Assembly (NCBI GenBank): GCA_029093145.1
Contig: GCA_029093145.1_4347.1
DNA from: a phage
DNA length: 44,066 nucleotides
Strand: one strand, 5' to 3'
Part shown: piece after piece, positions 4,914 through 41,295 of the stretch
How positions within the stretch are numbered: position 1 is the first letter of the stretch
Layout of the letters: the number at the start of each line of letters is the position of its first letter
The notes under the pieces: generated by a model
Told to the model about the DNA's origin: nothing
The model's input: only the letters and a program-made list of their open reading frames with translations
Database searches by the model: none
Made by a program: the position numbers and the translations under genes

Positions 4914-4940
4914 AAAGGCCCCGCTAGGGGCCTTAGTTTT
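4914..4940. terminator. bidirectional terminator hairpin
   Basis: AGGCCCC-GCTA-GGGGCCT then TAGTTTT; sits between convergent genes. Confidence 0.6.
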
Positions 4941-7242: not shown

Positions 7243-7270
7243 AAGGCCCCATTAAGGGGCCTTAGTTTTC
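7243..7270. terminator. terminator hairpin
   Basis: AAGGCCCC-ATTA-AGGGGCCTT then AGTTTTC. Confidence 0.6.
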
Positions 7271-7472: not shown

Positions 7473-7499
7473 TTTTCACCTCCTGTTTAAGTTAACTGA

Positions 7500-7528
7500 A
7501 TAGTACCCTATTATATTGGGGTGTGCAA
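7500..7528 (-). promoter_or_regulatory. class B promoter TTGCAC-N17-TACTAT with embedded AATAG-N4-CTATT dyad
   Basis: On minus strand TTGCACACCCCAATATAATAGGGTACTATTCA; near-identical copies at 16744-16772, 40040-40068, 41236-41264. Confidence 0.5.
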
Positions 7529-7580
7529 ACTATTTATTTACGTATTCCAGTTATTCCACCGAATTGTAAATGTTGGAATA

Positions 7581-7596
7581 AACTATTCGAATAGTT
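7581..7596. promoter_or_regulatory. perfect 16-bp palindrome AACTATTCGAATAGTT
   Basis: Self-complementary; half-site ACTATTC matches the promoter-associated motif. Confidence 0.4.
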
Positions 7597-7800
7597 GACT
7601 TTTCACTAAAAATATGATAAGCTCCACCTGAGCTTGTGAAGTATGAACAAGCGACCGCGGCGCGGGCAGGTAACGGAGCGGGACGTAAGTCCTGAGTGTA
7701 GTTACGCTGACGCGTTCGGAAGGGCCATACTCTATTGCTTGTGTAAAAAGTAACTGGTTTACTGAGATTACGCCGTTTCTATGTTTAAATGATAAGGACT

Positions 7801-7830
7801 AGCGCCCCGCTTTATGGCGGGGCTTTACTT
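7801..7830 (+). terminator. terminator-like hairpin upstream of spanin genes
   Basis: AGCGCCCCGC-TTTATG-GCGGGGCT followed by TTACTT. Confidence 0.4.
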
Positions 7831-7848
7831 ATCGAGAAAGGGGGAAAC

Positions 7849-8344: not shown

Positions 8345-8426
8345 TTGCCTTGCATGTTGGGATAATTTATTCTTGACATGTAAATCCGGGTGGCCCGGAT
8401 TCCAACGTCCAGGGGACATACTGACT

Positions 8427-9128
8427 ATGAATCGTTTTTTACGTTATCCGTTCCAGGAAGAAGCTGGAGCAGAAGATAAAGCTGGTGGCGGTGACGCGCC
8501 GAAAATGTTCACCGCTGAAGAAGTTCAGGTGCTGATTGAGAAAGAAGTTGCCGGGCTTAAGGCTAATCAGGAAGCATTGTTGGCGGAGAAGAAAGAAGCC
8601 GCTCGCAAAGCAAAAGAGGCCGAAGAAGAACGGCAGCGCGCGCACCAGGAGGCGTTAAAAGCCGCTGGTAAGATGGATGAGTTCGAAAAGACGATTCGTA
8701 GCCAGTATGACCCGGTGTTAGCCGAGAAAGACGGTCGCATCTCCAGAATGGCAGAGCGTATCCTCGGCAGCGAACGTAAAGCGGTGCTAGGCTCTTTCGC
8801 GGGTGACTTTATTACCCCAGAAGCAGTGGACATTCTTGCGCCGTTCGTTAAGACTGAGTTCGAAGGCGATGATGTGGTTACTAAGTTTGTTGGTGCAGAC
8901 GGTAACGTAATCACGACTGACCCGGAACAGTTCCGCAAATACCTGCGCGAACACAAGGCGTTTTCGCATTTGATCAAAGCAAATGCAGCTTCCGGCGGCG
9001 GGGCTTCCGGTAGCAAAGGCGGCGGGGCCGCACCAGCGTTTAAAGACATGAGTGAAGCAGAGCGTTTAGCCCTGTATAAATCGAACCCTGCCGAATTTGA
9101 ACGGCAACTTAAAGCCCTGAGGAAATAA
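8427..9128 (+). CDS. scaffolding protein (putative)
   Basis: Charged, alanine/glutamate-rich coiled-coil-like ORF directly upstream of major capsid gene (track ORF opens at 8373). Confidence 0.6.
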   Translation: MNRFLRYPFQEEAGAEDKAGGGDAPKMFTAEEVQVLIEKEVAGLKANQEALLAEKKEAARKAKEAEEERQRAHQEALKAAGKMDEFEKTIRSQYDPVLAEKDGRISRMAERILGSERKAVLGSFAGDFITPEAVDILAPFVKTEFEGDDVVTKFVGADGNVITTDPEQFRKYLREHKAFSHLIKANAASGGGASGSKGGGAAPAFKDMSEAERLALYKSNPAEFERQLKALRK

Positions 9129-9130
9129 TA

Positions 9131-10180
9131 ATGGCAATTACCACTATCGGCGATATCGTAACTGGCAACATCCCGGTCCTGGCGTCTTATATGACCGAGG
9201 ACCCGGTAGAAAAAACCGCGTTCTTCCAGTCTGGTATTCTGACCCCGACCCCGTACGCTGCCGAGATTGCCCGCGGCCCGTCCAACGTCGCTAATATTCC
9301 GTTCTGGAAAGCGATTGATACCTCTATCGAGCCTAACTACTCGAACGATGTATACCAGGACATCGCCACCCCGCGTAACGTGCAGACCGGCGAGATGATG
9401 GCGCGCGTTGCATACCTGAACGAAGGTTTCGGTCAGGCGGATTTGACCGTTGAACTGACCAGCCAGAACCCGCTGCAATCCGTAGCGTCACGTCTGGATA
9501 ACTTCTGGCAGCGTCAGGCACAACGCCGTCTGATTGCTACCGCGCTCGGGCTGTACAATGACAACGTAGCCGCTACCGACGCATACCACGAGCAGAATGA
9601 CATGGTAATCGACGTGTCTGCTACTCTGGGCTTCGATGCGGGCGCGTTCATCGACGCTACCCAGACTATGGGCGATGCTCTGATGGGCAACGGCGGTGAA
9701 GTGCTGGGGGCTATCGCGATGCATAGCTTCGTTTATGCGCAGGCACGTAAGCAGCAGCTTATCGACTTCATCCGTGACGCGGACAACAACACCATGTTCG
9801 CCACCTACCAGGGCTACCGCGTGATTGTTGACGACAGCATGACCGTAGTCGGCACTGGCCCGACCCGTAAGTTCATCTCCATCATCTTCGGCAACGGCGC
9901 TATCGGTTACGGTGAAGGTTCTCCGTCCAACCCGCTGGAATACGAGCGCGAAGCGTCCCGCGGCAACGGCGGCGGCGTTGAAACCCTGTGGACCCGTAAG
10001 ACCTGGTTGCTACATCCGTTTGGTTACAGCTTCACCAGTGCAGTAATCACTGGCAACGGCACCGAGACTACCCCGCGCTCTGCTTCCTGGCAGGACCTGG
10101 CGAACGCCTCCAACTGGAACCGTGTGGTTGACCGCAAGCACGTACCGATTGCCTTCCTGGTAACTGGTGTCGGTGCTTAA
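9131..10180 (+). CDS. major capsid protein
   Basis: 349 aa ORF after scaffold, followed by strong UUCG-loop terminator. Confidence 0.75.
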   Translation: MAITTIGDIVTGNIPVLASYMTEDPVEKTAFFQSGILTPTPYAAEIARGPSNVANIPFWKAIDTSIEPNYSNDVYQDIATPRNVQTGEMMARVAYLNEGFGQADLTVELTSQNPLQSVASRLDNFWQRQAQRRLIATALGLYNDNVAATDAYHEQNDMVIDVSATLGFDAGAFIDATQTMGDALMGNGGEVLGAIAMHSFVYAQARKQQLIDFIRDADNNTMFATYQGYRVIVDDSMTVVGTGPTRKFISIIFGNGAIGYGEGSPSNPLEYEREASRGNGGGVETLWTRKTWLLHPFGYSFTSAVITGNGTETTPRSASWQDLANASNWNRVVDRKHVPIAFLVTGVGA

Positions 10181-10195
10181 GGTTAAGCTATAATC

Positions 10196-10224
10196 GAGAG
10201 GGACTTCGGTCCCTCTTTTCATTT
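10196..10224 (+). terminator. rho-independent terminator after capsid gene
   Basis: GAGAGGGAC-TTCG-GTCCCTCT followed by TTTCATTT. Confidence 0.7.
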
Positions 10225-10241
10225 ACTAAGAGGATTCCTAA

Positions 10242-10583
10242 ATGGTAGACGTATTGAAGCGACGTATCACCGGCGTCTCCGCTGACGCCCCGGGCGCTAA
10301 GATTGACATGGCGACTATTTCTCCTGCGTCTTTCTCTTCCGCGCTGGCGGCTACTACCGCAGTGACCACAGGTGAAACTATGACGCTGACCGTAACGGTA
10401 GCCGGTGGTCTGGAGCCATATTCTTACCAGTGGTATAAGAATAACAACGCCATCGCCGGGGCTACCGCAGCTACCTATGCTAAAGCATCGACCACTGCCG
10501 CCGACTCCGGTACGTATAAAGTGGTTGTTCACGATGCGTATGGTAATATTATCTCCAGCAGCACTGTAGCAACTGTGTCTTAA
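10242..10583 (+). CDS. Ig-like domain protein (head decoration candidate)
   Basis: Ig-like motif LTVTVAGGLEPYSYQWYKNNNAI ... SGTYKVVVHDAYG; SD AAGAGGA. Confidence 0.5.
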   Translation: MVDVLKRRITGVSADAPGAKIDMATISPASFSSALAATTAVTTGETMTLTVTVAGGLEPYSYQWYKNNNAIAGATAATYAKASTTAADSGTYKVVVHDAYGNIISSSTVATVS

Positions 10584-10588
10584 TACAG

Positions 10589-10604
10589 CGGCCCTTCGGG
10601 GCCG
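10589..10604 (+). other. stable GC hairpin with UUCG-type loop, no U-tract
   Basis: CGGCCC-TTCG-GGGCCG immediately after decoration gene. Confidence 0.4.
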
Positions 10605-10619
10605 TAATAAGGAAAGGTC

Positions 10620-10799
10620 ATGGCAGATAATTATGTAATCCGTGAAAAGTACACCCACGTTGATATTGTAGACGGTCAGGTGATGCCTGTTCGCGGTGTG
10701 GTAGAAGCGGATGAACTGGTTGCGACTCAACCGGACAACGAAGAAGCGCACAACAACGGCGGTGGTGCTAAGCGTCGTCGCCGTAAATCAGAGGAATAA
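10620..10799 (+). CDS. hypothetical small protein with basic C-terminus (59 aa)
   Basis: Hand-translated ORF with SD AAGGAAAGG; ends GGGAKRRRRKSEE. Confidence 0.35.
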   Translation: MADNYVIREKYTHVDIVDGQVMPVRGVVEADELVATQPDNEEAHNNGGGAKRRRRKSEE

Positions 10800-10802
10800 T
10801 TT

Positions 10803-11315
10803 ATGCCGCTAATCGTGGAAGACGGGTCGATAGTACCTAACGCCGACAGTTACATTAGTCTGGCTGACGCCCGCGCGTTAGCGGCTAATTACGGTCTTGA
10901 GTTACCCGCAGACGATACTGCCGCAGAGGTGGCACTGCGCAACGGTGCTACTTATGTCGGGCTTGCAGAACCTCAGATGTGTGGCCACCGCGTATCCGCC
11001 GAGCAGTCCCTGGCGTACCCCCGCACCGGCGTTACGTTAAACGGGTTCCCGGTGGTCAACAACGCCATTCCGAAACAGGTGATTCTTGCGCAGGTAATCG
11101 CTGCCGCTACATATGGCGAGGGCACCGAAGTCCGGGCTAACTCAGACGGTCGCGCCGTGCAGACTGAGCGTGTCGAGGGTGCAGTAACAGTGACCTACTT
11201 CAACAATGGCAACAGTGGCGCTACGACCGCGATTACCGCTGCTGACGACGCCTTACGCCCGTTACTGTGTGGTGGTCTTAACAACGGCTTCTCATTTAAT
11301 GTGTACCGGGGTTAA
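10803..11315 (+). CDS. head-tail connector/adaptor protein (putative)
   Basis: Position between capsid genes and tail genes; 170 aa. Confidence 0.45.
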   Translation: MPLIVEDGSIVPNADSYISLADARALAANYGLELPADDTAAEVALRNGATYVGLAEPQMCGHRVSAEQSLAYPRTGVTLNGFPVVNNAIPKQVILAQVIAAATYGEGTEVRANSDGRAVQTERVEGAVTVTYFNNGNSGATTAITAADDALRPLLCGGLNNGFSFNVYRG

Positions 11316-14265: not shown

Positions 14266-14296
14266 AACTAAGGCCCCTTTCGGGGCCTTTTTCTTA
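14265..14296. terminator. bidirectional terminator
   Basis: AAAACTAAGGCCCC-TTTC-GGGGCCTTTTTCTT; A-run and T-run on both sides of the hairpin. Confidence 0.65.
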
Positions 14297-16692: not shown

Positions 16693-16743
16693 AACATAAC
16701 TCCTGATTTGAGATAACATCGTTGGTGTAAGTGAATAGTACGC

Positions 16744-16772
16744 TATTATATTGGGGAGTGCAAGTAGTGTGC
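16744..16772 (-). promoter_or_regulatory. class B promoter TTGCAC-N17-TACTAT driving the accessory operon
   Basis: Minus strand TTGCACTCCCCAATATAATAGCGTACTATTCAC; dyad AATAG-N4-CTATT at 16743-16756. Confidence 0.5.
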
Positions 16773-19987: not shown

Positions 19988-20022
19988 CAAAAAAAAAAAT
20001 AAGGCCCGAAAGGGCCTTATTT
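19988..20022. terminator. bidirectional terminator (A10 / hairpin / T-run)
   Basis: AAAAAAAAAAT-AAGGCCC-GAAA-GGGCCTT-ATTTAT. Confidence 0.7.
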
Positions 20023-27968: not shown

Positions 27969-27995
27969 CTAAGGCCCCAAACGGGGCCTTTTCTC
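27969..27995. terminator. bidirectional terminator
   Basis: AAGGCCCC-AAAC-GGGGCCTT then TTCTCT. Confidence 0.65.
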
Positions 27996-30661: not shown

Positions 30662-30793
30662 TCATTCCAGCACCCACAGATAAATTGCGATGAACATGCC
30701 CAATATGGCAACCATCATGCCGTATTGACCCTCGTGACAGTAGACACCTGCGGCAAATCCCGCCAGTACCGCGATAATCAGTTTACTTAGCAT
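30662..30793 (-). CDS. small hydrophobic protein (43 aa)
   Basis: Hand-translated; overlaps 3' end of polymerase gene; hydrophobic MLSKLIIAVLAGFAAGV. Confidence 0.3.
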   Translation of the reverse strand: MLSKLIIAVLAGFAAGVYCHEGQYGMMVAILGMFIAIYLWVLE

Positions 30794-32954
30794 AGCGTTT
30801 TAACTCCTGACCTTCCGCTACAAGAGGGAACCCCTCCGCCCATTCTGGTAATTCGCACATCAATCGCTCAAGCTCTGCGACATTGTATTCCGGCGTATCT
30901 GGAGTTTCGCAGATAATCTCATCGTGGACATGAAGTACAATCGGGTAGCCGTTTGCTTCAACGTTAAGTAGCGCATTAGCCAGCAAGTCACGGCACAGTG
31001 CCTGAGTGCAGTTTTCCACCAGTTTACCGGAGTAGGTGTACTGGAAGCCCCACTGCCTGGTTAACTGATTTTCACCCTGATACTTGATGCGCACGTTAGT
31101 AGAAACTTTTCCGTCTTCGTCTGTCTCTTTTGACACGCTCAACCCGACGCCCGGGTATGACATAACGCGACCTGACGGCAACGTCATGCGCAACCACCAA
31201 CCAGCGACTTTGTTGCCGTTGTTGTCTGTTTCTACGTTGCGAGAAAACTTAACCCCGCGAGGGCCAGCGGTGAACTCTTTCCCCGGATTACGGATTGCTG
31301 CCATAGCTGCGTCTTCAATATCGCGCCAGAATTGGACTATTGCAGGATTAGCTTCCCGGTACATGCGCTTTAAAGCGTCACAGGTGCGCCAAACTTTCTT
31401 ATCAAGGATATATGAGGGTCGGTCATCTTTTTCACCAGGACGTGGTGGTCGCTTGGCTTCCTGAATACGCGCCCATTCGTATCCGCGTGCGGTAGCGGCC
31501 CAAATATGGTCCGGGAATGTACCGTCTAAAGTGTTAGTCATGTCATTCAAATCAAGACCTAAGTTTTTAGCAAACGTGACGAAAGCACCGACGCCCCCCG
31601 CGTAGCCGAGTCCCAGAACCATTGCTTTGGCTATTTGTCTTTGGTCCTTTGTTACGGCTTCATATGCAACATTGAACACCGTTGATGCGAGTTTCTTATA
31701 CACATCAACCCCGTTTACAAATACTTCGATTAAATCGTCTTCACCCGCCAGCCACGCAAGACCGCGGCCTTCGACGTTAGAGTAATCGGCGACGACAAAC
31801 TTATGCCCAGCTTCCGGTATAATGCAGCTACGAACGGTAGATGCCGTCAGCTTGGCTACGTCAAATCGGCGGTGCGCCCGGCCCTTAAGTAACGCTGAAA
31901 TGCCTTTATCCAGTTCATCATCGTGATAGTACCCACGCGCCAGGTTCTGTGGCTGGAAGCCTTTACCCGCGAACCGTAACGTACGCTTTGCCCCACCGTA
32001 CTGGATACAACCGCGGCGTCGGTCGTCAGACGAGCGGCCCAACAGCAGCGGGTTATATTTCGTGGACGCGGTGGACGCCGCCCCGAGGCGCATTTCGATA
32101 ATCATCCGGGCGTCGTCCGGTAAATCATCATCTGCCAACAGGTCGTTAAGCGTCGACTTCTGTGCATTGTGTATGCGGTGCGCGGGCGAAAGTTCACGCA
32201 GAATCGGAAGGAAGTCTTTACCGGTAAGCGAGCCGCCGTATTTACGTTGAGCTTCTTCCTGTAACTGTGCCTTGTGCTTCTCTACGGCTTCAATAGCGGC
32301 TTCCGCCAGTGCGACGTCAACCTTAAATCCGCGGTCGTTGATTAACTGGTCAAGCTCCAGTACACGGTCTTCGAACTCGGAGTTACCCCAACGCGGCAGC
32401 TTATGGAAGACTTCACGCATCGCAGTGATGTCGCTCACGGCGTACCTGATGAACATCGCCCACTCGTCAGGGTGAGTTTCTGCGGTGTAGCGGCGGATTT
32501 TGTAGTTCTTCGGCGTCGGTTTAGAGAAACGCTTAATCAGAGCCTTGCCGCGTTTATCTTTCGCGTTGTCTGCAGACACGCCCAGCACTTCGCACAGCGC
32601 ATCAAGAGAACCCGGCAGCGCGTGACGGAACGCCCAAATCATAGTATCAATGGTGTTACTTACCGGAATATCAAAGTCCCAGCAGTGTTTCATGATTAGG
32701 CGATCGAAAAGTCCACCGTTGTGCCACACCATCTTGATGCGGCTGTTGGGCTTAACAAGGCGGCGCAGTGCGCGGTGTAAATCCCCCGGCATGTCGCTGC
32801 CGTCGGTGCAATCCCATACCCGCACAGGTTCGTCGTCAAAAGCATATGTACAGATAAGCACTTCGGTTGACGGGTGTTCGGCGTAAGCGTAAGAACCGAC
32901 TTTCTTCAAATCGGCTTCTGAGAATGTTTCAAAGTCTAAGAACAGGTAACTCAT
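30783..32954 (-). CDS. DNA polymerase, family A, with 3'-5' exonuclease domain
   Basis: Exo motif FLDFETFS; Pol motif A DYSNVEGR, motif B RQIAKAMVLGLGYAGG, motif C HVHDEI. Confidence 0.92.
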   Translation of the reverse strand: MSYLFLDFETFSEADLKKVGSYAYAEHPSTEVLICTYAFDDEPVRVWDCTDGSDMPGDLHRALRRLVKPNSRIKMVWHNGGLFDRLIMKHCWDFDIPVSNTIDTMIWAFRHALPGSLDALCEVLGVSADNAKDKRGKALIKRFSKPTPKNYKIRRYTAETHPDEWAMFIRYAVSDITAMREVFHKLPRWGNSEFEDRVLELDQLINDRGFKVDVALAEAAIEAVEKHKAQLQEEAQRKYGGSLTGKDFLPILRELSPAHRIHNAQKSTLNDLLADDDLPDDARMIIEMRLGAASTASTKYNPLLLGRSSDDRRRGCIQYGGAKRTLRFAGKGFQPQNLARGYYHDDELDKGISALLKGRAHRRFDVAKLTASTVRSCIIPEAGHKFVVADYSNVEGRGLAWLAGEDDLIEVFVNGVDVYKKLASTVFNVAYEAVTKDQRQIAKAMVLGLGYAGGVGAFVTFAKNLGLDLNDMTNTLDGTFPDHIWAATARGYEWARIQEAKRPPRPGEKDDRPSYILDKKVWRTCDALKRMYREANPAIVQFWRDIEDAAMAAIRNPGKEFTAGPRGVKFSRNVETDNNGNKVAGWWLRMTLPSGRVMSYPGVGLSVSKETDEDGKVSTNVRIKYQGENQLTRQWGFQYTYSGKLVENCTQALCRDLLANALLNVEANGYPIVLHVHDEIICETPDTPEYNVAELERLMCELPEWAEGFPLVAEGQELKRYAK

Positions 32955-32971: not shown

Positions 32972-32996
32972 AAAAAGGCCCAATGAAGGGCCTTAG
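32972..32996 (-). terminator. attenuator/terminator hairpin between SSB-like and polymerase genes
   Basis: Minus strand AAGGCCC-TTCATT-GGGCCTT followed by TTTTACTAGG. Confidence 0.45.
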
Positions 32997-33014: not shown

Positions 33015-33641
33015 TTAGCGGCGACGACGTTCACGGCGCGGTGCTTCATCTTCTTCGTCATCTTCCAGGTCATTGACGCTCGCGGCGACTTTAGAACCGC
33101 CGAACGCTTTGCCTTCGCCAACGTATTTAATCGCCAGCAGGTTAACGCCGAGGACTTTGTATTTCTGGCTGAACCAGATTTCAACGCTTACGTTAGCTAA
33201 GCATCCGCTGTAAACCTGTTCACCTTCAATCTGTTCGCCGTCTACGTTGAAGTCCTGCTCTACCTGAGTCTCGCCTTTTTTAGAGGTTACAATCAGCGGT
33301 TGTTTCTGTGCCTTCGCTTTGAAGTAGAAGCCTTCCGGGAAGTCTTCAAACGGATTGTCGCGCTCGGCAATGTCTTTAATCGCGCATTTATCCATGTGCT
33401 TACCTTCACCGTAGTTGGACTTCATCCATTTCTCGGCAGCGGCTGCGCCTAACGCTTCTTCAACTACAGCGTAAACGGTGTCGTAGAGTGCATCGATTTG
33501 AGCATGGTCAGACGGCAGGATGATAGTCGCGCTGTACTGGCCTTTAGTGATTGAGCCATCATCGTTTTCACGGTCTTTTTCACGTTCAAATACGTTAACC
33601 CATGCAGTGTTTACTTTACGCAGATTCAGTTTAATACCCAT
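33015..33641 (-). CDS. SSB-like protein (DUF2815-like), acidic C-terminal region
   Basis: Position next to Cas4-like nuclease and polymerase; DLEDDEEDE near C-terminus. Confidence 0.45.
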   Translation of the reverse strand: MGIKLNLRKVNTAWVNVFEREKDRENDDGSITKGQYSATIILPSDHAQIDALYDTVYAVVEEALGAAAAEKWMKSNYGEGKHMDKCAIKDIAERDNPFEDFPEGFYFKAKAQKQPLIVTSKKGETQVEQDFNVDGEQIEGEQVYSGCLANVSVEIWFSQKYKVLGVNLLAIKYVGEGKAFGGSKVAASVNDLEDDEEDEAPRRERRRR

Positions 33642-35726: not shown

Positions 35727-35769
35727 ATTTCCGCCCCTCCGTTAAAGCGGCCCGAAGGCCGCCTGATAG

Positions 35770-36550: not shown

Positions 36551-36579
36551 ACTATAATAGCGAACTATTCACATGTCAA
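36551..36579 (-). promoter_or_regulatory. class A promoter TTGACA-N17-TATAGT with AATAG-N4-CTATT dyad
   Basis: Minus strand TTGACATGTGAATAGTTCGCTATTATAGT; dyad 36556-36569. Confidence 0.5.
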
Positions 36580-36643
36580 TGGGCTTTTCTAAAATAATTA
36601 ATATGGTACTATTCACATATCAACTGACTAAGGAGTAACTGAC

Positions 36644-36876: not shown

Positions 36877-39144
36877 CTATTCCAAATCCTCCTCTGTCAC
36901 TGTCAACATTTCATTCGGTTCGTATATTGTCTTTGGAATCTTGTTATCAGTTATTCTGGTGTTCAGCCTGTAACGACCTGGGATTATCTGATTGTTTTCG
37001 TCAGTACCCGGAACAAGATACCCGGCCTCAACCATTTTCTTAATCTTCCCGCGTTCTATGGCTTCTTTGGAGTTAAACGCCTTTGCGTTTGGGTCTGACT
37101 GTGCGAGCTTATTCGCCGCGGCGACTGTGATGCCTTCGTTGCCGTTGTAGGTTCCTTCCGCCAGTTCAAACGCCGCGAGTATCGTGGCCTCCGAACTGTT
37201 GACGGCGTTCTCTACGGTTTTACGTACATTTTCTTTACCTTCTTTCGTCAACCCTTCTTCCCGCTCTTTCTCCTCGTCAGTTTTGAACGGCTCGAAACCC
37301 CACGGCATCAACACAAGCGCCTTGTGTGGTTCAGGCAGGTCCAGGTTTACGATTGTGCCGTATTCCTCTGTGCTACCCAGGAACTCAACCGCTCGGTATT
37401 CTTTAGGTGGCGGCGCTTCACGGAACTGTACCGACTCCAGCACCATGCCAACCGTCTTCTGCTGAGGCCCGTGCTTGAATTTCGAGTGATATACGTTTAT
37501 CTGACGGTCGGTTGCACGTTCGATTGTCAGTTCCACATCAACACCCGCATACAGCGCCCCACTGCCGCGTGCTTTCTTTCCACCCTTCGGCGTATGGTGG
37601 ACAACGCCTACTGCGGCTTTAGTTGCATCGCGTACTTCTTTCAGAATGGCGATAACTTTACCCATGCCGATTGCTGTTGATGAACTGTTCTCGTCGAACT
37701 TATCAATCGTCAGTGCCAGGGTCTGGTTAAGGGTGTCGAACGCAACCATGCCAATTGGCTCGTCGCCAGCAGTTTCGCGCATTAACTTAATCAGGCTTTT
37801 AAGTTTGCCGACTTCGCCCATATCGATGACATGTACATAATCTTTACCTTCCTCGCCGTATTTAGCCGCGAGCGCATCAATACGTGTACGTGTGGCTGCC
37901 CCACCCTCGCCGTCGATATAGAAATGGTGACAACGCTGGGTGTCAGCCCCTGCAAACCGGTATCCGGCGGCGCTCAGGTACATCATCCCCAGCGTATAGA
38001 ATGATTTGTACGTGCCCGATCCTCCGACGATACCCCAGATACAATCCGACGGCATGTACCCCTCAACGACGAAATCAGCCTTTACCGGCTCCGGTAACTC
38101 GTCCTCCTCTGAGTCCTCGTCGTCTTCCAGGTCGTCGAGGCTGCATGAGACAGATTCACGCGCCCCCCAACCGATGGCCTCTGCGACTTCACTGAACGGC
38201 AGCCCGGTCGCATCGCACGCGTACTTCCACACCTCTTTCGGTGACAGGCCTTCTGTCGCCGTAATGTCTGTGTCGTGAATCATGGTTACGTTTGGCGCTT
38301 CATACCCCTCGCGCGGGAAGCACAGCAGGAAGTCGTCCGGGCGCGGTGTCGGGTCGCTGTAGTTTTCGGCATGTTCCGGTGTGGCTGGCATCTTAAGGCC
38401 GCGCGGCGTCATGACGCCGCCGTACTCAAACGCCAGTGCTTCAAACGCGTCTGTAAACGCGGTGCGCAGTTCTTCCGGTATCTGGTAATCCGATGCGCTG
38501 CTAACGTCAACGGCTGGGATGCCTTCCAGTAACTCGTTCGGGTCGATCAGGTCGTTGCGGCGCGACCAGATAACGGTAGCGCCGACCGGCGGCAGGTACA
38601 TCGGCTGCGACAGAGTGAACCCGCTGCGGTCCGCACCCATGCCTTTGAAGAAGTGCTCCAGCAACCCATGACGAACACGGATGATATCACCACCCTCAAC
38701 TGGGCGGGCCAGCGGCATGACGACGCGAAAGCGAGGCGACTCATCGGTATGTGATGCCGTGGTGTAGAGACACATCGCCCGGCAGCTGCGATTAACCAGG
38801 CGCACCGCTTCCTGGTACTCTTCCGGTGTTGCACTGTCGAAGTCCAGATACGCCAGCGACGATTTGCTCACAGACGCGTCACAGCGATAGAAGAAGCCTT
38901 TACGCGCTTGTTTAAAGCCACCGGTTTCCGGGTCTTTTACGGTGCTGTGTGTAGAATCGCACGCGGCCGTGATATAACCGGGCGCAGTCTTGGGGTTAAT
39001 CCCGTCACGAACGGCATCGAGCGGCTGGATTAACTCTTTCAGGTCGTCCAGTGTTGCCGTGTGTGCGGTTCTGACATTTATATCCTTTTTCCCCGCCCGC
39101 GCGTTGCGGCGTGACCACGAGTAGGATAAAATTACATCGGACAT
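36877..39144 (-). CDS. primase-helicase (AEP-type primase-polymerase domain fused to RecA-like ATPase)
   Basis: N-terminal YLDFD and TTASHTD motifs (AEP-like); central Walker A GGSGTYKS and Walker B GMVAFDTL. Confidence 0.6.
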   Translation of the reverse strand: MSDVILSYSWSRRNARAGKKDINVRTAHTATLDDLKELIQPLDAVRDGINPKTAPGYITAACDSTHSTVKDPETGGFKQARKGFFYRCDASVSKSSLAYLDFDSATPEEYQEAVRLVNRSCRAMCLYTTASHTDESPRFRVVMPLARPVEGGDIIRVRHGLLEHFFKGMGADRSGFTLSQPMYLPPVGATVIWSRRNDLIDPNELLEGIPAVDVSSASDYQIPEELRTAFTDAFEALAFEYGGVMTPRGLKMPATPEHAENYSDPTPRPDDFLLCFPREGYEAPNVTMIHDTDITATEGLSPKEVWKYACDATGLPFSEVAEAIGWGARESVSCSLDDLEDDEDSEEDELPEPVKADFVVEGYMPSDCIWGIVGGSGTYKSFYTLGMMYLSAAGYRFAGADTQRCHHFYIDGEGGAATRTRIDALAAKYGEEGKDYVHVIDMGEVGKLKSLIKLMRETAGDEPIGMVAFDTLNQTLALTIDKFDENSSSTAIGMGKVIAILKEVRDATKAAVGVVHHTPKGGKKARGSGALYAGVDVELTIERATDRQINVYHSKFKHGPQQKTVGMVLESVQFREAPPPKEYRAVEFLGSTEEYGTIVNLDLPEPHKALVLMPWGFEPFKTDEEKEREEGLTKEGKENVRKTVENAVNSSEATILAAFELAEGTYNGNEGITVAAANKLAQSDPNAKAFNSKEAIERGKIKKMVEAGYLVPGTDENNQIIPGRYRLNTRITDNKIPKTIYEPNEMLTVTEEDLE

Positions 39145-39202
39145 GTTGTATTTCCTTCAGCAAGTAATTTGGCCTCGGCGTTCACCGCGTCGGGGCTTTC
39201 TT

Positions 39203-39436
39203 TTATTCCAGGTCTTCTAAAGTAGCGGTCATTCCGCGAACTTCAGCAAAGGCACTATATTTCCCGCCAACATTTTTCACGACGCCAGATTTAACCAGCA
39301 CTTTTAACGACCCTTCAATAATGACGGAACTATAGTACTTAAAATAACTGCGGCGCAAGTCGATAACGCTGCACGACCCTTTTTTACGTGTTAATGAAAC
39401 GACTGCCGTAAATACGCGTGACTGGAACTCGGTCAT
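39203..39436 (-). CDS. hypothetical protein (77 aa)
   Basis: Overlaps HTH gene start by 4 nt; shares C-terminal LEDLE tail with two replication proteins. Confidence 0.45.
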   Translation of the reverse strand: MTEFQSRVFTAVVSLTRKKGSCSVIDLRRSYFKYYSSVIIEGSLKVLVKSGVVKNVGGKYSAFAEVRGMTATLEDLE

Positions 39437-39630
39437 TTTACATTCTCCTTAATCCACGCTTCCACTTTCTCCCGGTCAAACGTACCTGGCTGACGGCGGC
39501 CCATAATGCGGACACAACAATCCGGGAACTTCCCACTCTTTAACCAGTTATTCAGCGTGCGACGGGTAACCCCGATACGCTCAGCTACCTCATTCTGTGT
39601 CATCCTCAAGCCCCCATTATCAGTTAACAA
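39433..39630 (-). CDS. AlpA/excisionase-like HTH DNA-binding protein
   Basis: MTQNEVAERIGVTRRTLNNWLKSGKFP helix-turn-helix. Confidence 0.6.
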   Translation of the reverse strand: MLTDNGGLRMTQNEVAERIGVTRRTLNNWLKSGKFPDCCVRIMGRRQPGTFDREKVEAWIKENVK

Positions 39631-40039: not shown

Positions 40040-40068
40040 TTGCACACCCCAACATAATAGGTTACTAT
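40040..40068 (+). promoter_or_regulatory. class B promoter TTGCAC-N17-TACTAT
   Basis: TTGCACACCCCAACATAATAGGTTACTATTCA; dyad 40056-40069. Confidence 0.5.
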
Positions 40069-40102
40069 TCACTTATCGAAACGAGACATAAGGAATTTAG
40101 AA

Positions 40103-41235: not shown

Positions 41236-41264
41236 TTGCACACTAAGATAGAATAGGCTACTAT
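41236..41264 (+). promoter_or_regulatory. class B promoter TTGCAC-N17-TACTAT
   Basis: TTGCACACTAAGATAGAATAGGCTACTATTCA; dyad 41252-41265. Confidence 0.5.
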
Positions 41265-41295
41265 TCATTTACACGAACGAGAGGAGAGACAGAAG

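Follow-up and report, generated by a model that had tools for sequence, protein, structure and literature searches.

In phage T7 the terminator Tphi lies directly after gene 10, and genes 11 and 12 are expressed by read-through only (10.1101/106799). The siphophage SPP1 has a predicted Rho-independent terminator (8775-8815) after its MCP gene 13 (PMC6316719), and in phiX174 the terminators TJ, TF and TG each block only 20-40% of transcription, which leads to graded mRNA levels (10.1101/2020.03.05.979765). The efficiency of lambda tR2 falls from ~90% to <10% with a stop codon 5 bp upstream and is 0.12-0.8 with a stop codon 17-18 bp away (Li et al. 2015, PMC4824070). Stem-loops that are not terminators also shape operon expression, those of malE-malF (a REP element) and menBCE standing at the 3' boundary of an abundant upstream segment (Dar & Sorek 2018, PMC5927463). 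Such protective hairpins of E. coli block PNPase and RNase II after a downstream RNase E cut, are conserved between species and, where consecutive, give stepwise decreases, while in papBA an RNase E cut just upstream of the hairpin makes it the stabilising 5' end of the downstream mRNA (PMC5927463). For the Kagunavirus-related phage fBC-Eco01 the predicted terminators include T8, GATATAATCGAGAGGGACTTCGGTCCCTCTTTTCATTTACT, and T9, TTTCCTTATTACGGCCCCGAAGGGCCGTTGTATTAAGAC (PMC9825357, Supplementary Table S2).

We looked at the late head operon of a Kagunavirus-type E. coli siphophage within a stretch of 44,066 nucleotides (the window, meaning the whole of the DNA analysed). The operon runs on the plus strand from ~7.5 to 14.3 kb, carries two hairpins here called hp1 and hp2, and belongs to a phage in which no RNA polymerase gene is annotated. 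Its relevant features are as follows.

9131-10180, plus strand: major head (capsid) protein gene, a 349-aa ORF and the cistron upstream of hp1
10181-10195, plus strand: 15-nt spacer between the capsid stop codon and hp1, holding a conserved TATAAT (10189-10194)
10196-10217, plus strand: hp1 stem-loop GAGAGGGAC-TTCG-GTCCCTCTT, a 9-bp stem with 5 G-C pairs and a C(UUCG)G tetraloop
10218-10224, plus strand: U-rich tail of hp1, TTCATTT, which reads UUUUCAUUU when the two terminal U's of the stem are included
10242-10583, plus strand: Ig-like (Hoc-like) head decoration gene, 113 aa, the cistron between hp1 and hp2
10588-10605, plus strand: hp2 stem-loop (G)CGGCCC-TTCG-GGGCCG(T), 6 G-C pairs and a terminal G-U pair
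10608-10616, plus strand: Shine-Dalgarno (SD) region AAGGAAAGG of the 59-aa ORF, with a conserved AAGGA at 10609
10620-10799, plus strand: conserved 59-aa ORF (PHROG 4451), the first cistron past hp2
10803-11315, plus strand: head-tail adaptor Ad1 gene, next after the 59-aa ORF
14270-14289, bidirectional: terminator AAGGCCCC-N4-GGGGCCTT, which closes the head-neck-tail operon containing hp1 and hp2

The capsid assignment comes from a match to the PHROG 247 major head protein (E = 4e-120) and from relatives, 97% identical, that are annotated as major head/capsid protein. The decoration gene carries Pfam Ig_2/Ig_3/I-set matches and matches PHROG 4069, Hoc-like head decoration (E = 2e-51). The terminator at 14270 is one of four near-identical copies (4915, 7243, 14270, 27971), all of them at convergent gene junctions.

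Set against the described systems, hp1 would correspond to Tphi of T7, a hairpin terminator right behind the most expressed structural gene with a step-down in expression; Tphi however works on the RNA polymerase that T7 itself encodes and its stem is long, with interruptions, whereas hp1 is a 9-bp hairpin of the E. coli type. SPP1 is like our phage a siphophage using the host RNA polymerase and has the same order of scaffold, capsid, U-tract hairpin, small gene of ~58 aa and head-tail adaptor (PMC6316719), but there the decoration gene (12) precedes the capsid gene and the reported features include no second, U-less hairpin. In phiX174 hairpins likewise stand in series behind successive structural genes, although phiX174 is an ssDNA microvirus and its efficiencies are measured ones, whereas those of hp1 and hp2 would be predictions. 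The closest functional likeness of hp2 is with the malE-malF and menBCE hairpins, yet hp2 is no REP element but a minimal 7-bp tetraloop hairpin in a 36-nt intergenic region, and most E. coli protective structures, unlike the intergenic hp2, lie within the downstream coding sequence. Standing 3 nt ahead of the next SD, hp2 could act as a 5' protector in the manner of papBA, but this would benefit the connector genes downstream, of whose products fewer copies are needed; inspection of the 4-nt spacer upstream of hp2 showed no evident RNase E motif of the RN/WUU type. In fBC-Eco01, T8 is the homologue of hp1 and T9 the reverse complement of the homologue of hp2, so that T9 lies on the non-transcribed strand; the two are pure ARNold predictions, not distinguished from each other and given without comparative or functional analysis. 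Our finding is real and ordinary; homologues of both hairpins have already been published as predicted terminators.

Two stable tetraloop hairpins in the late head operon

Direct reading of the sequence finds both hairpins where an earlier note on this DNA had placed them, and the 6-bp GC stem with a TTCG loop and no U-tract which it described behind the decoration gene is exactly the core of 6 G-C pairs of hp2 (10589-10604). Folded in isolation hp1 reaches -15.5 kcal/mol (z = -4.3, 0/200 shuffles) and hp2 -15.0 kcal/mol (z = -3.7, 0/200 shuffles), and both are kept in the MFE and centroid folds of 160-170-nt contexts. Counting hairpins that have a TTCG loop and a stem of 6 bp or more with no fewer than 4 G-C pairs, we found 4 in the window against a mean of 0.2 expected, and none of 200 dinucleotide shuffles reached 4; these hairpins are not a product of chance. 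Among the 19 strongest perfect-stem hairpins (<= -14 kcal/mol, plus-strand reading) 11 sit in the ~9% of the window that is non-coding. By definition hp1, hp2 and a further hairpin at 35745 are all UNCG tetraloops, since each has a C(UUCG)G loop closed by a C-G pair; relatives, with few exceptions, carry UUCG, UCCG, UACG or UGCG or else, of the GNRA type, GAAA or GCAA. Rfam searches at the gathering threshold (whole window) and at a permissive threshold (10100-10700) returned nothing relevant: no family matches 10100-10700 at its gathering score, and the sole sub-threshold match there covers 15 nt of PhotoRC-I and scores 14.6 bits, where the gathering score is 45.

Conservation and covariation among relatives

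Across 27 Kagunavirus loci the two intergenic regions bearing hp1 and hp2 are the most conserved parts of a 3-kb region, with identities of 98.3% and 96.9% compared with 75-96% in the flanking coding DNA, and the Ig-like gene between them is the most variable segment (mean nucleotide identity of 75% in its 5' half). A hairpin directly 3' of the capsid stop codon is present in all 58 loci whose capsid identity is 85% or more, and in 11 of the 16 where it is 39-73%. The stems of these post-capsid hairpins are unrelated across relatives, the sequence having been replaced repeatedly, and many of the loops are UUCG, UACG, UGCG or GAAA. For hp1 itself 92.7% of cells are paired among 23 distinct relatives and 5 of the 9 pairs show compensatory changes on both sides, as in an A-U pair that is G-C in 11 of the 23 sequences; 0/500 shuffles reach this.

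Every relative carrying the Ig gene has hp2 (58/58), though the Ig protein falls to as little as 59% identity. Using a loop-anchored alignment, as MAFFT had set the Jerseyvirus hairpin out of register, we found 98.9% of hp2 cells to be paired, with a terminal pair that covaries (A-U/G-C/G-U) and one paired indel, while the loop swaps among UUCG, UCCG, GAAA and GCAA and is always 4 nt long. Covariation at hp2 is thin, with 4 of the 7 pairs invariant and just one pair altered on both sides. Taken together the loop exchange, the paired indel and the covarying terminal pair point to selection on the RNA structure and not on the DNA sequence. As judged from the sequences compared, the two hairpins are conserved throughout the subfamily of this phage.

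In most relatives hp1 and hp2 enclose a decoration module of two genes, where the earlier note had described a single bracketed gene. Relatives with the extra gene have no hairpin separating it from the Ig gene, which indicates that the hairpins bracket the module and not each gene.

hp1 has the hallmarks of an intrinsic terminator

Intrinsic terminators typically combine a short-looped, G+C-rich hairpin of ~5-14 bp, lying past a gene on the strand that is transcribed, with at least 4-5 U within 8 nt directly 3' of the stem, and for full efficiency in vivo they lie > ~15-30 nt from the stop codon, clear of the ribosome. The 9-bp stem and 4-nt loop of hp1 stand on the plus strand 3' of a plus-strand gene, and the hairpin was called by a terminator scan with 5 T in 8. 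Its T-weight of 3.35 compares with 2.4-3.9 for the operon-end terminators of the window, and its tail is kept as TTTTCAT or TTTTCAC in all close relatives. A rough score also ranks hp1 among the operon-end terminators of the phage; this was our own implementation of a score of the d'Aubenton-Carafa type, used for ranking within the window only, since a tR2 sequence used as reference scored negative with it and the absolute threshold is therefore distrusted. The distance of 15 nt from the capsid stop codon puts hp1 in an intermediate zone, on zones extrapolated from the one model terminator of Li et al. 2015.

The proposal that a terminator follows the capsid gene is thus borne out as far as sequence can do so, as hp1 has all the hallmarks of one and is conserved in position with compensatory changes in its stem. 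By these features it is a canonical intrinsic terminator or attenuator as in T7, SPP1 and phiX174, with an efficiency that we infer. If late transcription were antiterminated hp1 may be a poor terminator in vivo, and an improbable reading is that an AlpA-like, promoter-loaded antiterminator drives late transcription, in which case hp1 would act solely post-transcriptionally.

Apart from the hairpins, the sequence contains some hints of antitermination: a terminator in the leader (7804-7823), an RNA motif of the int-alpA kind, and a small HTH protein resembling Xis/AlpA (65 aa, HTH_17, 39436-39630, minus strand).

hp2 lacks a U-tract and lies close to the stop codon

The stem of hp2 would suit a terminator, with 7 bp (6 of them G-C), a 4-nt loop and plus-strand orientation, but its tail, AATAAGGAAAGGTCATG, holds no U-tract; read as (U)AAUAAGGAAAGG it has 1 T in 8 and the terminator scan is silent. 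Its T-weight is 1.07 (0.29 in the L018 variant), the lowest among intergenic hairpins scored in the direction of transcription. Among relatives the tails contain 0-4 U, the Kagunavirus variants having at most one U adjoining the stem and those of Jerseyvirus having UUU, which gives a borderline terminator score and makes some termination possible there. The hairpin starts 4 nt after the decoration gene stop, in the zone where termination is repressed (<10% at 5 bp in the one model terminator of Li et al. 2015). Lacking a U-tract and standing 4 nt past a stop codon, hp2 is predicted to be very unlikely to terminate efficiently.

On the downstream side a gap of 3 nt (10606-10608, AAT) separates the end of hp2 from AAGGA. 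The hairpin stands 3-4 nt ahead of AAGGA or AGGA in 26/26 distinct variants, while the spacer between the stop codon and hp2 varies both in length (3-6 nt) and in sequence. As would be expected of a 3'-protective hairpin, hp2 is the only predicted structure in the 36-nt decoration-connector intergenic region, is stable in context and lies in an intergenic region that is more conserved than the flanking genes. The reading that we consider most likely, by analogy with the hairpins of malEF, menBCE and papBA, is that hp2 is a 3'-protective or segment-boundary mRNA hairpin; the segment upstream of it would be the more abundant, as virion stoichiometry suggests.

In RNase III sites the double-stranded stem spans two helical turns, ~20 bp or more, and frequently contains an internal loop. 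The earlier note had regarded hp2 as an RNA-stabilising or processing element and not as a terminator; the latter part stands, given the U-less Kagunavirus tail and the nearby stop codon, but processing by RNase III at a site of the T7 R type can be set aside because the stem of hp1 has only 9 bp and that of hp2 only 7 bp, and in context folds hp2 is not enclosed by any longer helix. We also considered hp2 as an antisense terminator, as the reverse-strand ARNold call would imply, and rejected this: downstream, the operon holds neither a minus-strand gene nor a promoter-like motif, and the bidirectional terminator 14270-14289 already ends the minus-strand genes found at 14.3-16.7 kb.

Other hairpins in the window

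Two minus-strand hairpins bear on the comparison.

32975-32994, minus strand: AAGGCCC-UUCAUU-GGGCCUU followed by UUUAC, T-weight 3.5
35745-35764, minus strand: hp2-type hairpin AGGCGGCC-TTCG-GGCCGCTT-TAACGGAGG, no U-tract

The first lies between genes for a Gp2.5-like SSB (33015-33641) and DNA polymerase A (30783-32954), both on the minus strand. It had been put forward as similar to hp2, a likeness that does not hold, for it is on the minus strand, its 6-nt loop differs from TTCG and it has a run of five U; this is an ordinary terminator of moderate strength and not a twin of hp2. A closer twin, absent from the earlier note, is the hairpin at 35745-35764, whose RNA reads AGGCGGCC-UUCG-GGCCGCUU, starts 5 nt past a stop codon and is followed by UAAC-GGAGG (the SD). 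At this boundary a hairpin is kept in relatives, with unrelated hairpins in some and a U-tract in a few distant ones.

A proposed division of the late head message

The explanation that we favour, with a rough probability of 0.55, is that hp1 is a leaky terminator and hp2 a post-transcriptional barrier, and that together they yield three mRNA segments of falling abundance. The two would act as cis-acting RNA hairpins that split one polycistronic late head message into three parts, scaffold and capsid being followed by the decoration module and this by the connector, neck and tail genes, each part less abundant than the one before. At hp1, a Rho-independent leaky attenuator, part of the polymerases would halt after the capsid gene, and the scaffold-capsid mRNA, whether released or processed, would be capped at its 3' end by a tetraloop hairpin that resists 3'-5' exonucleases. 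hp2, which has no U-tract and falls under the footprint of a ribosome finishing the decoration gene, would terminate inefficiently; its role would be post-transcriptional, as a segment boundary and a barrier to 3' exonucleases that keeps the decoration-module mRNA stable after RNase E cuts the less translated genes downstream. The structures, with their positions, conservation, covariation and spacing, and the missing U-tract of hp2 are observed; it is the stabilising action of hp2 and the efficiency of hp1 that this mechanism supposes.

So understood, the hairpins are a common and largely known phage route to more capsid than connector protein, and they exemplify a general rule whereby tailed phages set RNA hairpins behind capsid or decoration genes and match mRNA dosage to virion stoichiometry; they open no new biological question. 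The phiX174 terminators were reportedly also described by Hayashi and colleagues as mRNA-stabilising signals. Transcriptomic literature offers little for comparison, with one RNA-seq paper found for a Kagunavirus (vB_Eco_K1B4, PMC12645636), whose text has no per-gene or coverage table, and none found for a Jerseyvirus; a search for Term-seq, northern or in vitro data turned up nothing for any Guernseyvirinae phage.

For practical purposes the hairpins provide two conserved regulatory landmarks for annotating and engineering therapeutic Kagunavirus and Jerseyvirus phages. hp1 would offer phage engineers a compact natural attenuator and hp2 a compact U-less tetraloop hairpin, to be used or to be preserved when a payload is added beside the decoration gene, and natural insertions exactly behind each hairpin and SD unit mark permissive sites.

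Alternative readings

It is possible, though in our view rather unlikely, that both hairpins are leaky intrinsic terminators, with hp2 a weak one (few percent to ~20%) that adds a second attenuation before the connectors and is stabilising only incidentally. The GC-rich stem and stable tetraloop of hp2 are those commonly seen in terminators, UUU or UAUU(U) stands 3' of the stem in Jerseyvirus and other relatives, whose scores are borderline, and distant relatives have true U-tract hairpins (CUUUUCU) at the 35745 boundary, so that U-tract and U-less hairpins interchange at orthologous positions. Weak terminators of 20-40% do serve the structural operon of phiX174 (10.1101/2020.03.05.979765), and the hp2 homologue of fBC-Eco01 was published as predicted terminator T9, but that ARNold call is on the strand opposite to the transcribed one (PMC9825357). 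The Kagunavirus tail is moreover always (U)AAUAAGGAAAGG, with T-weights of 0.3-1.1 that are the lowest of the scored hairpins, and hp2 starts 3-6 nt past the stop codon, where ribosomes hold tR2 below 10% (PMC4824070).

A role of hp2 and its 35745 twin in downstream translation, by insulating the RBS from upstream coding sequence or by blocking re-initiation and coupling by ribosomes coming off the heavily translated gene before it, so as to lower its rate, appears quite unlikely. The constant gap of 3-4 nt between hairpin and SD (26 variants), beside a stop-hairpin spacer that varies, would fit this equally well, and the same architecture of stop codon, ~5 nt, hairpin, 3-4 nt and SD recurs at 35745-35764. 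The hairpin and SD unit also remains constant despite replacement of the downstream gene or insertion of a new one, and protective structures may in addition reduce translation initiation of the flanking gene (Dar & Sorek, PMC5927463). Against this, the 59-aa ORF of L014 and L019, which has lost its upstream hairpin to an inserted gene, keeps an intact frame and SD and so needs no hairpin; no alternative pairing that would sequester the SD is predicted, and in an intergenic region of minimal size (36 nt) constant spacing may just reflect compaction.

The unit of hairpin and SD is unchanged when the genes downstream of it are not. The MAKTGKGLPRSL gene is present or absent right after the unit of hp1, a 129-aa insertion directly follows hp2 and differing genes follow the 35745 hairpin; 21 nt, GCGGCCTTCGGGCCGCTTTAA, are common to the Jerseyvirus hp2 and the 35745 hairpin of the window, and identity profiles are mosaic. 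Such an arrangement can be likened to the boundary or linker sequences that have been proposed in lambdoid phages and to the PeSL cassettes of T4-type phages. It is improbable that hp1, hp2 and the 35745 hairpin are portable hairpin and Shine-Dalgarno cassettes which serve both as setters of RNA stability and as DNA recombination linkers; were they so, they would be a Guernseyvirinae counterpart of the PeSL cassettes, with genes inserted, deleted and exchanged downstream. That the hairpins matter mainly as DNA, as conserved boundary sequences giving recombination homology for swapping decoration and accessory genes, is highly improbable in spite of these gene exchanges and of an intergenic conservation exceeding that of the flanking genes, as the 4-nt UNCG/GNRA loop swaps, compensatory stem changes and paired indel are signatures of selection on a folded RNA, 20-40 nt of homology is on the short side if recombination is to be efficient, selection for intact genes leads one to expect indel junctions at gene starts, and the mosaic breakpoints fall within the capsid gene too, with no demonstrated clustering at hairpins.

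A conserved TATAAT upstream of hp1

The TATAAT at 10189-10194 was considered as a sigma-70 promoter and rejected, having neither a -35 box nor a TGn extended -10 and being passed over by a promoter scan; the motif KYTATAMTC is not enriched (4 found against 1.95 expected). Pairing of TATAAT with the start region of the next gene was likewise set aside, as it occurs only in Kagunavirus relatives with the extra gene (AGCUAUAAU:AUUAUGGCU) and is absent in Jerseyvirus, in clade-3 relatives and in the window. In the alignment of this spacer T12, A13, T14, A15 and T17 are invariant or nearly so in three clades, while the flanks diverge.

Conserved hairpins on either side of the decoration gene

The 2.4-kb region around the two hairpins shares 97% identity with Escherichia phages DUEC01 and BEU33, and 476 GenBank phage records match it, from Escherichia Kagunavirus and Salmonella Jerseyvirus-type phages. 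Both hairpins, hp1 after the capsid gene and hp2 after the decoration gene, read exactly where an earlier note had placed them, and downstream of Ad1 lie neck and tail genes as far as a bidirectional terminator (14270-14289).

Local gene order and hairpins
8373-9128, scaffold gene
9131-10180, major head protein (capsid) gene
10196-10217 (+), hp1
10242-10583, Ig-like/Hoc-like decoration protein gene (Ig gene)
10588-10605 (+), hp2
10620-10799, conserved 59-aa ORF
10803-11315, head-tail adaptor Ad1 gene

Starting 15 nt past the capsid stop codon, hp1 has the form GAGAGGGAC-TTCG-GTCCCTCTT followed by TTCATTT, and its isolated fold (-15.5 kcal/mol, z = -4.3) was not equalled in stability by any of 200 shuffles. 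The same holds for hp2 (-15.0 kcal/mol, z = -3.7; 0/200), which reads GCGGCCC-TTCG-GGGCCGT with six G-C pairs (10589-10604) and starts 4 nt past the decoration-gene stop codon. Both also form within 160-170-nt contexts, in the MFE as well as the centroid fold. The window holds four TTCG-loop hairpins of at least 6 bp with 4 or more G-C pairs, where 0.2 are expected from 200 dinucleotide shuffles, none of which reached four, and its non-coding portion (about 9%) holds 11 of the 19 strongest perfect hairpins.

The hairpin after the capsid gene

We compared 78 IMG/VR loci encoding capsid relatives, from 99% down to 39% identity. In each of the 58 loci whose capsid identity is 85% or more, a U-tract hairpin lies 6-17 nt past the capsid stop, and in 11 of 16 more distant loci a strong hairpin comes first after the stop with a completely different stem (GGCGGGGCGGC-TTCG-GCTGCCCCGCC, AAAGCCCGC-TTCG-GCGGGTTT and GCCGGCGCC-N8-GGCGCCGGC, for example), some of these having no U-tract. 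In an alignment of 23 distinct close sequences 92.7% of cells are paired, both sides have changed in five of nine pairs (A-U to G-C in 11 sequences, for instance) and the covariation score lies above those of all 500 shuffles and every slid control. The T-weight of hp1 is 3.35, and operon-end terminators of the same phage span 2.4-3.9. On the strength of the relatives' hairpins, the covariation and the T-weight, hp1 is predicted to be a bona fide intrinsic-terminator element conserved in position.

It is highly probable that hp1 works as a terminator, if a partial one, and in the best-supported reading a leaky terminator or attenuator at this site would enrich scaffold-capsid mRNA. The layout is shared with T7, where Tphi immediately follows gene 10 and genes 11-12 are produced by read-through of Tphi only (10.1101/106799); with SPP1, where a predicted terminator comes directly after the MCP gene 13, a 58-aa gene and the adaptor being next in line (PMC6316719); and with phiX174, where weak terminators stand in series after structural genes, each taking out 20-40% of transcription (10.1101/2020.03.05.979765). 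For one model terminator, efficiency was 0.12-0.8 at 17-18 bp from the stop codon (Li et al. 2015, PMC4824070); by that measure a distance of 15 nt would put hp1 where the nearness of the ribosome adjusts efficiency.

A TATAAT (10189-10194, +) lies 2-4 nt upstream of hp1 and is kept in three diverged clades while its flanks diverge, with TATACT in its place in Jerseyvirus relatives; it is accompanied by neither a -35 box nor a TGn. Where Kagunavirus relatives carry an extra gene behind hp1, the motif can base-pair around that gene's start codon (AGCUAUAAU:AUUAUGGCU), a pairing unavailable in other clades and in the window. A context fold of 171 nt pairs UUUACUA, from the distal part of the hp1 U-tract, with UGGUAGA, which overlaps the Ig-gene start codon, and the loop so formed encloses the SD of that gene (10219-10250, +); the stretch 10120-10290 is more structured than shuffles (z = -3.9). 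Such a modelled pairing may weakly occlude the decoration-gene translation start on read-through transcripts.

The hairpin after the decoration gene

A hairpin separates the Ig gene from the 59-aa ORF in 58/58 loci carrying both, and is kept although the Ig protein falls to 59% and the 59-aa protein to 50% identity.

Variants of hp2
Kagunavirus, ACGGCCC-TTCG-GGGCCGT
Jerseyvirus, GCGGCC-TCCG/TTCG-GGCCGC, then TTTAAGG
Other relatives, ACGGCCC-GAAA/GCAA-GGGCCGT and AGCGGCC-TTCG-GGCCGCT

In a loop-anchored alignment 98.9% of cells are paired, the terminal pair covaries (A-U/G-C/G-U, with both sides changed in 10 sequences) and the Jerseyvirus form is shorter by one whole base pair; covariation is thin because the CGGCC/GGCCG core never varies. 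Such conservation demands a function. We consider it about 0.45-0.5 probable that hp2 is chiefly an mRNA stability boundary, by analogy with the intercistronic 3'-protective hairpins of differentially decaying operons, the closest established mechanism. This would fit virion stoichiometry, in which capsid and decoration subunits number in the hundreds and connector proteins form 12-mers. In operons of that type RNase E cleaves the downstream segment, which is less translated, and PNPase and RNase II are halted at the hairpin; malE-malF is one example, and the consecutive hairpins behind menB and menC, which yield stepwise decreases, are another (Dar & Sorek 2018, PMC5927463). Likewise, hp2 would stop PNPase and RNase II after RNase E cleavage downstream. 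We found no transcript-end mapping for this phage group in the literature.

That hp2 is a weak terminator is an unlikely alternative. As the earlier note had it, hp2 has no U-tract, since the stem runs into AATAAGGAAAGGTCATG; its T-weight of 1.07 is the lowest among intergenic hairpins scored in the direction of transcription, and across variants there are 0-4 U in the following 8 nt and never a real U-tract. The efficiency of tR2 drops from about 90% to below 10% close behind a stop codon (Li et al. 2015, PMC4824070). Two independent features, the missing U-tract and the start 4 nt past the stop codon, thus argue on sequence grounds against efficient termination. The proposal in the earlier note that hp2 looks more like an RNA-stabilising or processing element than a terminator holds up in its second half; its first half stands as the analogy drawn here. 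The next Shine-Dalgarno begins 3 nt past the stem, and stop-to-hairpin (3-6 nt) and hairpin-to-SD (3-4 nt) spacings hold in all variants; a translational insulator or anti-coupling element at this position is somewhat less likely still. A DNA-level boundary cassette is improbable: the loop is 4 nt in every variant and switches between UNCG-type and GNRA tetraloops, as selection on a folded RNA predicts and selection on a DNA-binding palindrome does not.

A true twin of hp2, missed in the earlier note, lies at 35764-35745 (-): AGGCGGCC-UUCG-GGCCGCUU, starting 5 nt past a stop codon and followed by UAAC-GGAGG. Hairpin and SD are constant there and the downstream gene varies among relatives, some of which have an unrelated hairpin instead, with or without a U-tract.

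Variation of the bracketed module

Across 27 Kagunavirus loci the intergenic regions with hp1 and hp2 (98.3% and 96.9% identity) are the most conserved of a 3-kb region whose flanking coding segments show 75-96%. The capsid gene has 92% nucleotide identity and the intergenic regions flanking the Ig gene 97-98%; by far the most divergent head-region segment is the Ig gene's 5' half (10242-10410), at a mean of 75%. Profiles are mosaic, one relative (L065) having a capsid gene 85% identical in its 5' half and 99% in its 3' half; together these patterns indicate that recombination is frequent, that the decoration protein is under diversifying selection, or both.

Surroundings of the decoration gene vary among relatives L003-L065 (e.g. 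L003 3610-3909). In most of them hp1 and the Ig gene are separated by an extra small gene (MAKTGKGLPRSL..., 67-128 aa), its product annotated as a head fibre or virion structural protein; this gene has been lost from the window and from a few relatives. Because the extra-gene/Ig-gene junction has a bare SD and no hairpin, hp1 and hp2 delimit a one- or two-gene decoration module and not every gene. Two loci have a 129-aa gene (MNDQQIEKE…) directly after hp2 and its SD (L014 3996-4385, L019 3999-4388), with no hairpin upstream of the 59-aa ORF. Every junction in gene content lies no more than a few nt behind a hairpin-plus-SD unit.

Such hairpins are textbook features, and the finding, though real, is ordinary and of little surprise. 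Homologues of hp1 and hp2 are listed for fBC-Eco01 as the ARNold-predicted terminators T8 and T9, T9 having been predicted for the wrong strand (PMC9825357, Table S2). Added here are the subfamily-wide conservation and covariation of both, the predicted contrast of hp1 as a true terminator with hp2, which has a twin at 35745, as a tetraloop hairpin lacking a U-tract and occluded by the ribosome, and the layout in which hairpins bracket a module.

Late-operon leaders

A promoter-like motif of about 20-30 nt (7497-7516) seems to mark the start of the operon that carries hp1 and hp2. The 20-nt form, TGAATAGTAC[C/G]CTATTATAT, has six copies at up to 3 mismatches against 0 expected, all intergenic.

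Copies of the promoter-like motif
7497-7516 and 16732-16751 (+)
36552-36571, 36596-36615, 40052-40071 and 41248-41267 (-)

A palindromic core, AATAG-N5-CTATT, overlaps a -10-like hexamer, TATTAT; the copies on the plus strand have more than 30 nt in common (…TATTATATTGGGG[T/A]GTGCAA) and head both late plus-strand operons. The motif is listed for fBC-Eco01 as "phage promoter" PP1-7 (PMC9825357) and is probably a phage-specific promoter or operator.

Between the 7497-7516 copy and the spanin, scaffold and capsid genes lies a non-coding leader of about 330 nt (7517-7848), closed by the region's strongest canonical terminator, GCCCCGCT-TTAT-GGCGGGGC then TTTACTT (7804-7823, +; -16.5 kcal/mol), 25 nt ahead of the first start codon (7849). 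The window's sole Rfam match at gathering score is int-alpA RNA (RF02996; 16782-16846, +; 36.6 bits, gathering score 35.8, local E = 3e-6), unexpected in a late-operon leader of a virulent Kagunavirus; its multi-stem structure is mostly preserved, and it lies 30 nt downstream of the 16732-16751 copy, shortly before the tail assembly chaperone gene (16871). A 65-aa HTH_17 (Xis/AlpA-like) protein is encoded at 39436-39630 (-), and in P. aeruginosa AlpA is an antiterminator that is loaded at the promoter (PMC7969949, PMC9371919). Given the leader terminator, the int-alpA leader and this protein, the late operons might be under antitermination, as in lambda PR'-tR' or with AlpA. Were this so, termination at hp1 would be weaker than expected from its sequence, and the main effect of both hairpins would be on RNA stability.

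Other hairpins

The site at 32972-32996, described in the earlier note as a similar partial terminator, proved to be of another kind. Flanked by the minus-strand genes for a Gp2.5-like SSB and DNA polymerase A, it reads AAGGCCC-UUCAUU-GGGCCUU-UUUAC on the minus strand (32975-32994) and, with its 6-nt loop and run of five U, looks like a normal moderate terminator. A related AAGGCCC hairpin lies at 19997-20022. Four near-identical hairpins, AAGGCCCC-N4/5-GGGGCCTT (4915-4934, 7243-7263, 14270-14289 and 27971-27990), are each found where two genes converge and, as bidirectional terminators, carry a T-rich tail on each strand; the phage reuses one stem sequence for its operon-end terminators. Finally, a hairpin at 39171-39197 folds at -17.6 kcal/mol with a TTCTTTTATT tail on the plus strand and, owing to G-U pairs, at -9.6 kcal/mol with no U-tract on the minus strand; the genes on either side (36877-39144, 39203-39436) are both on the minus strand, and it may terminate an antisense transcript.
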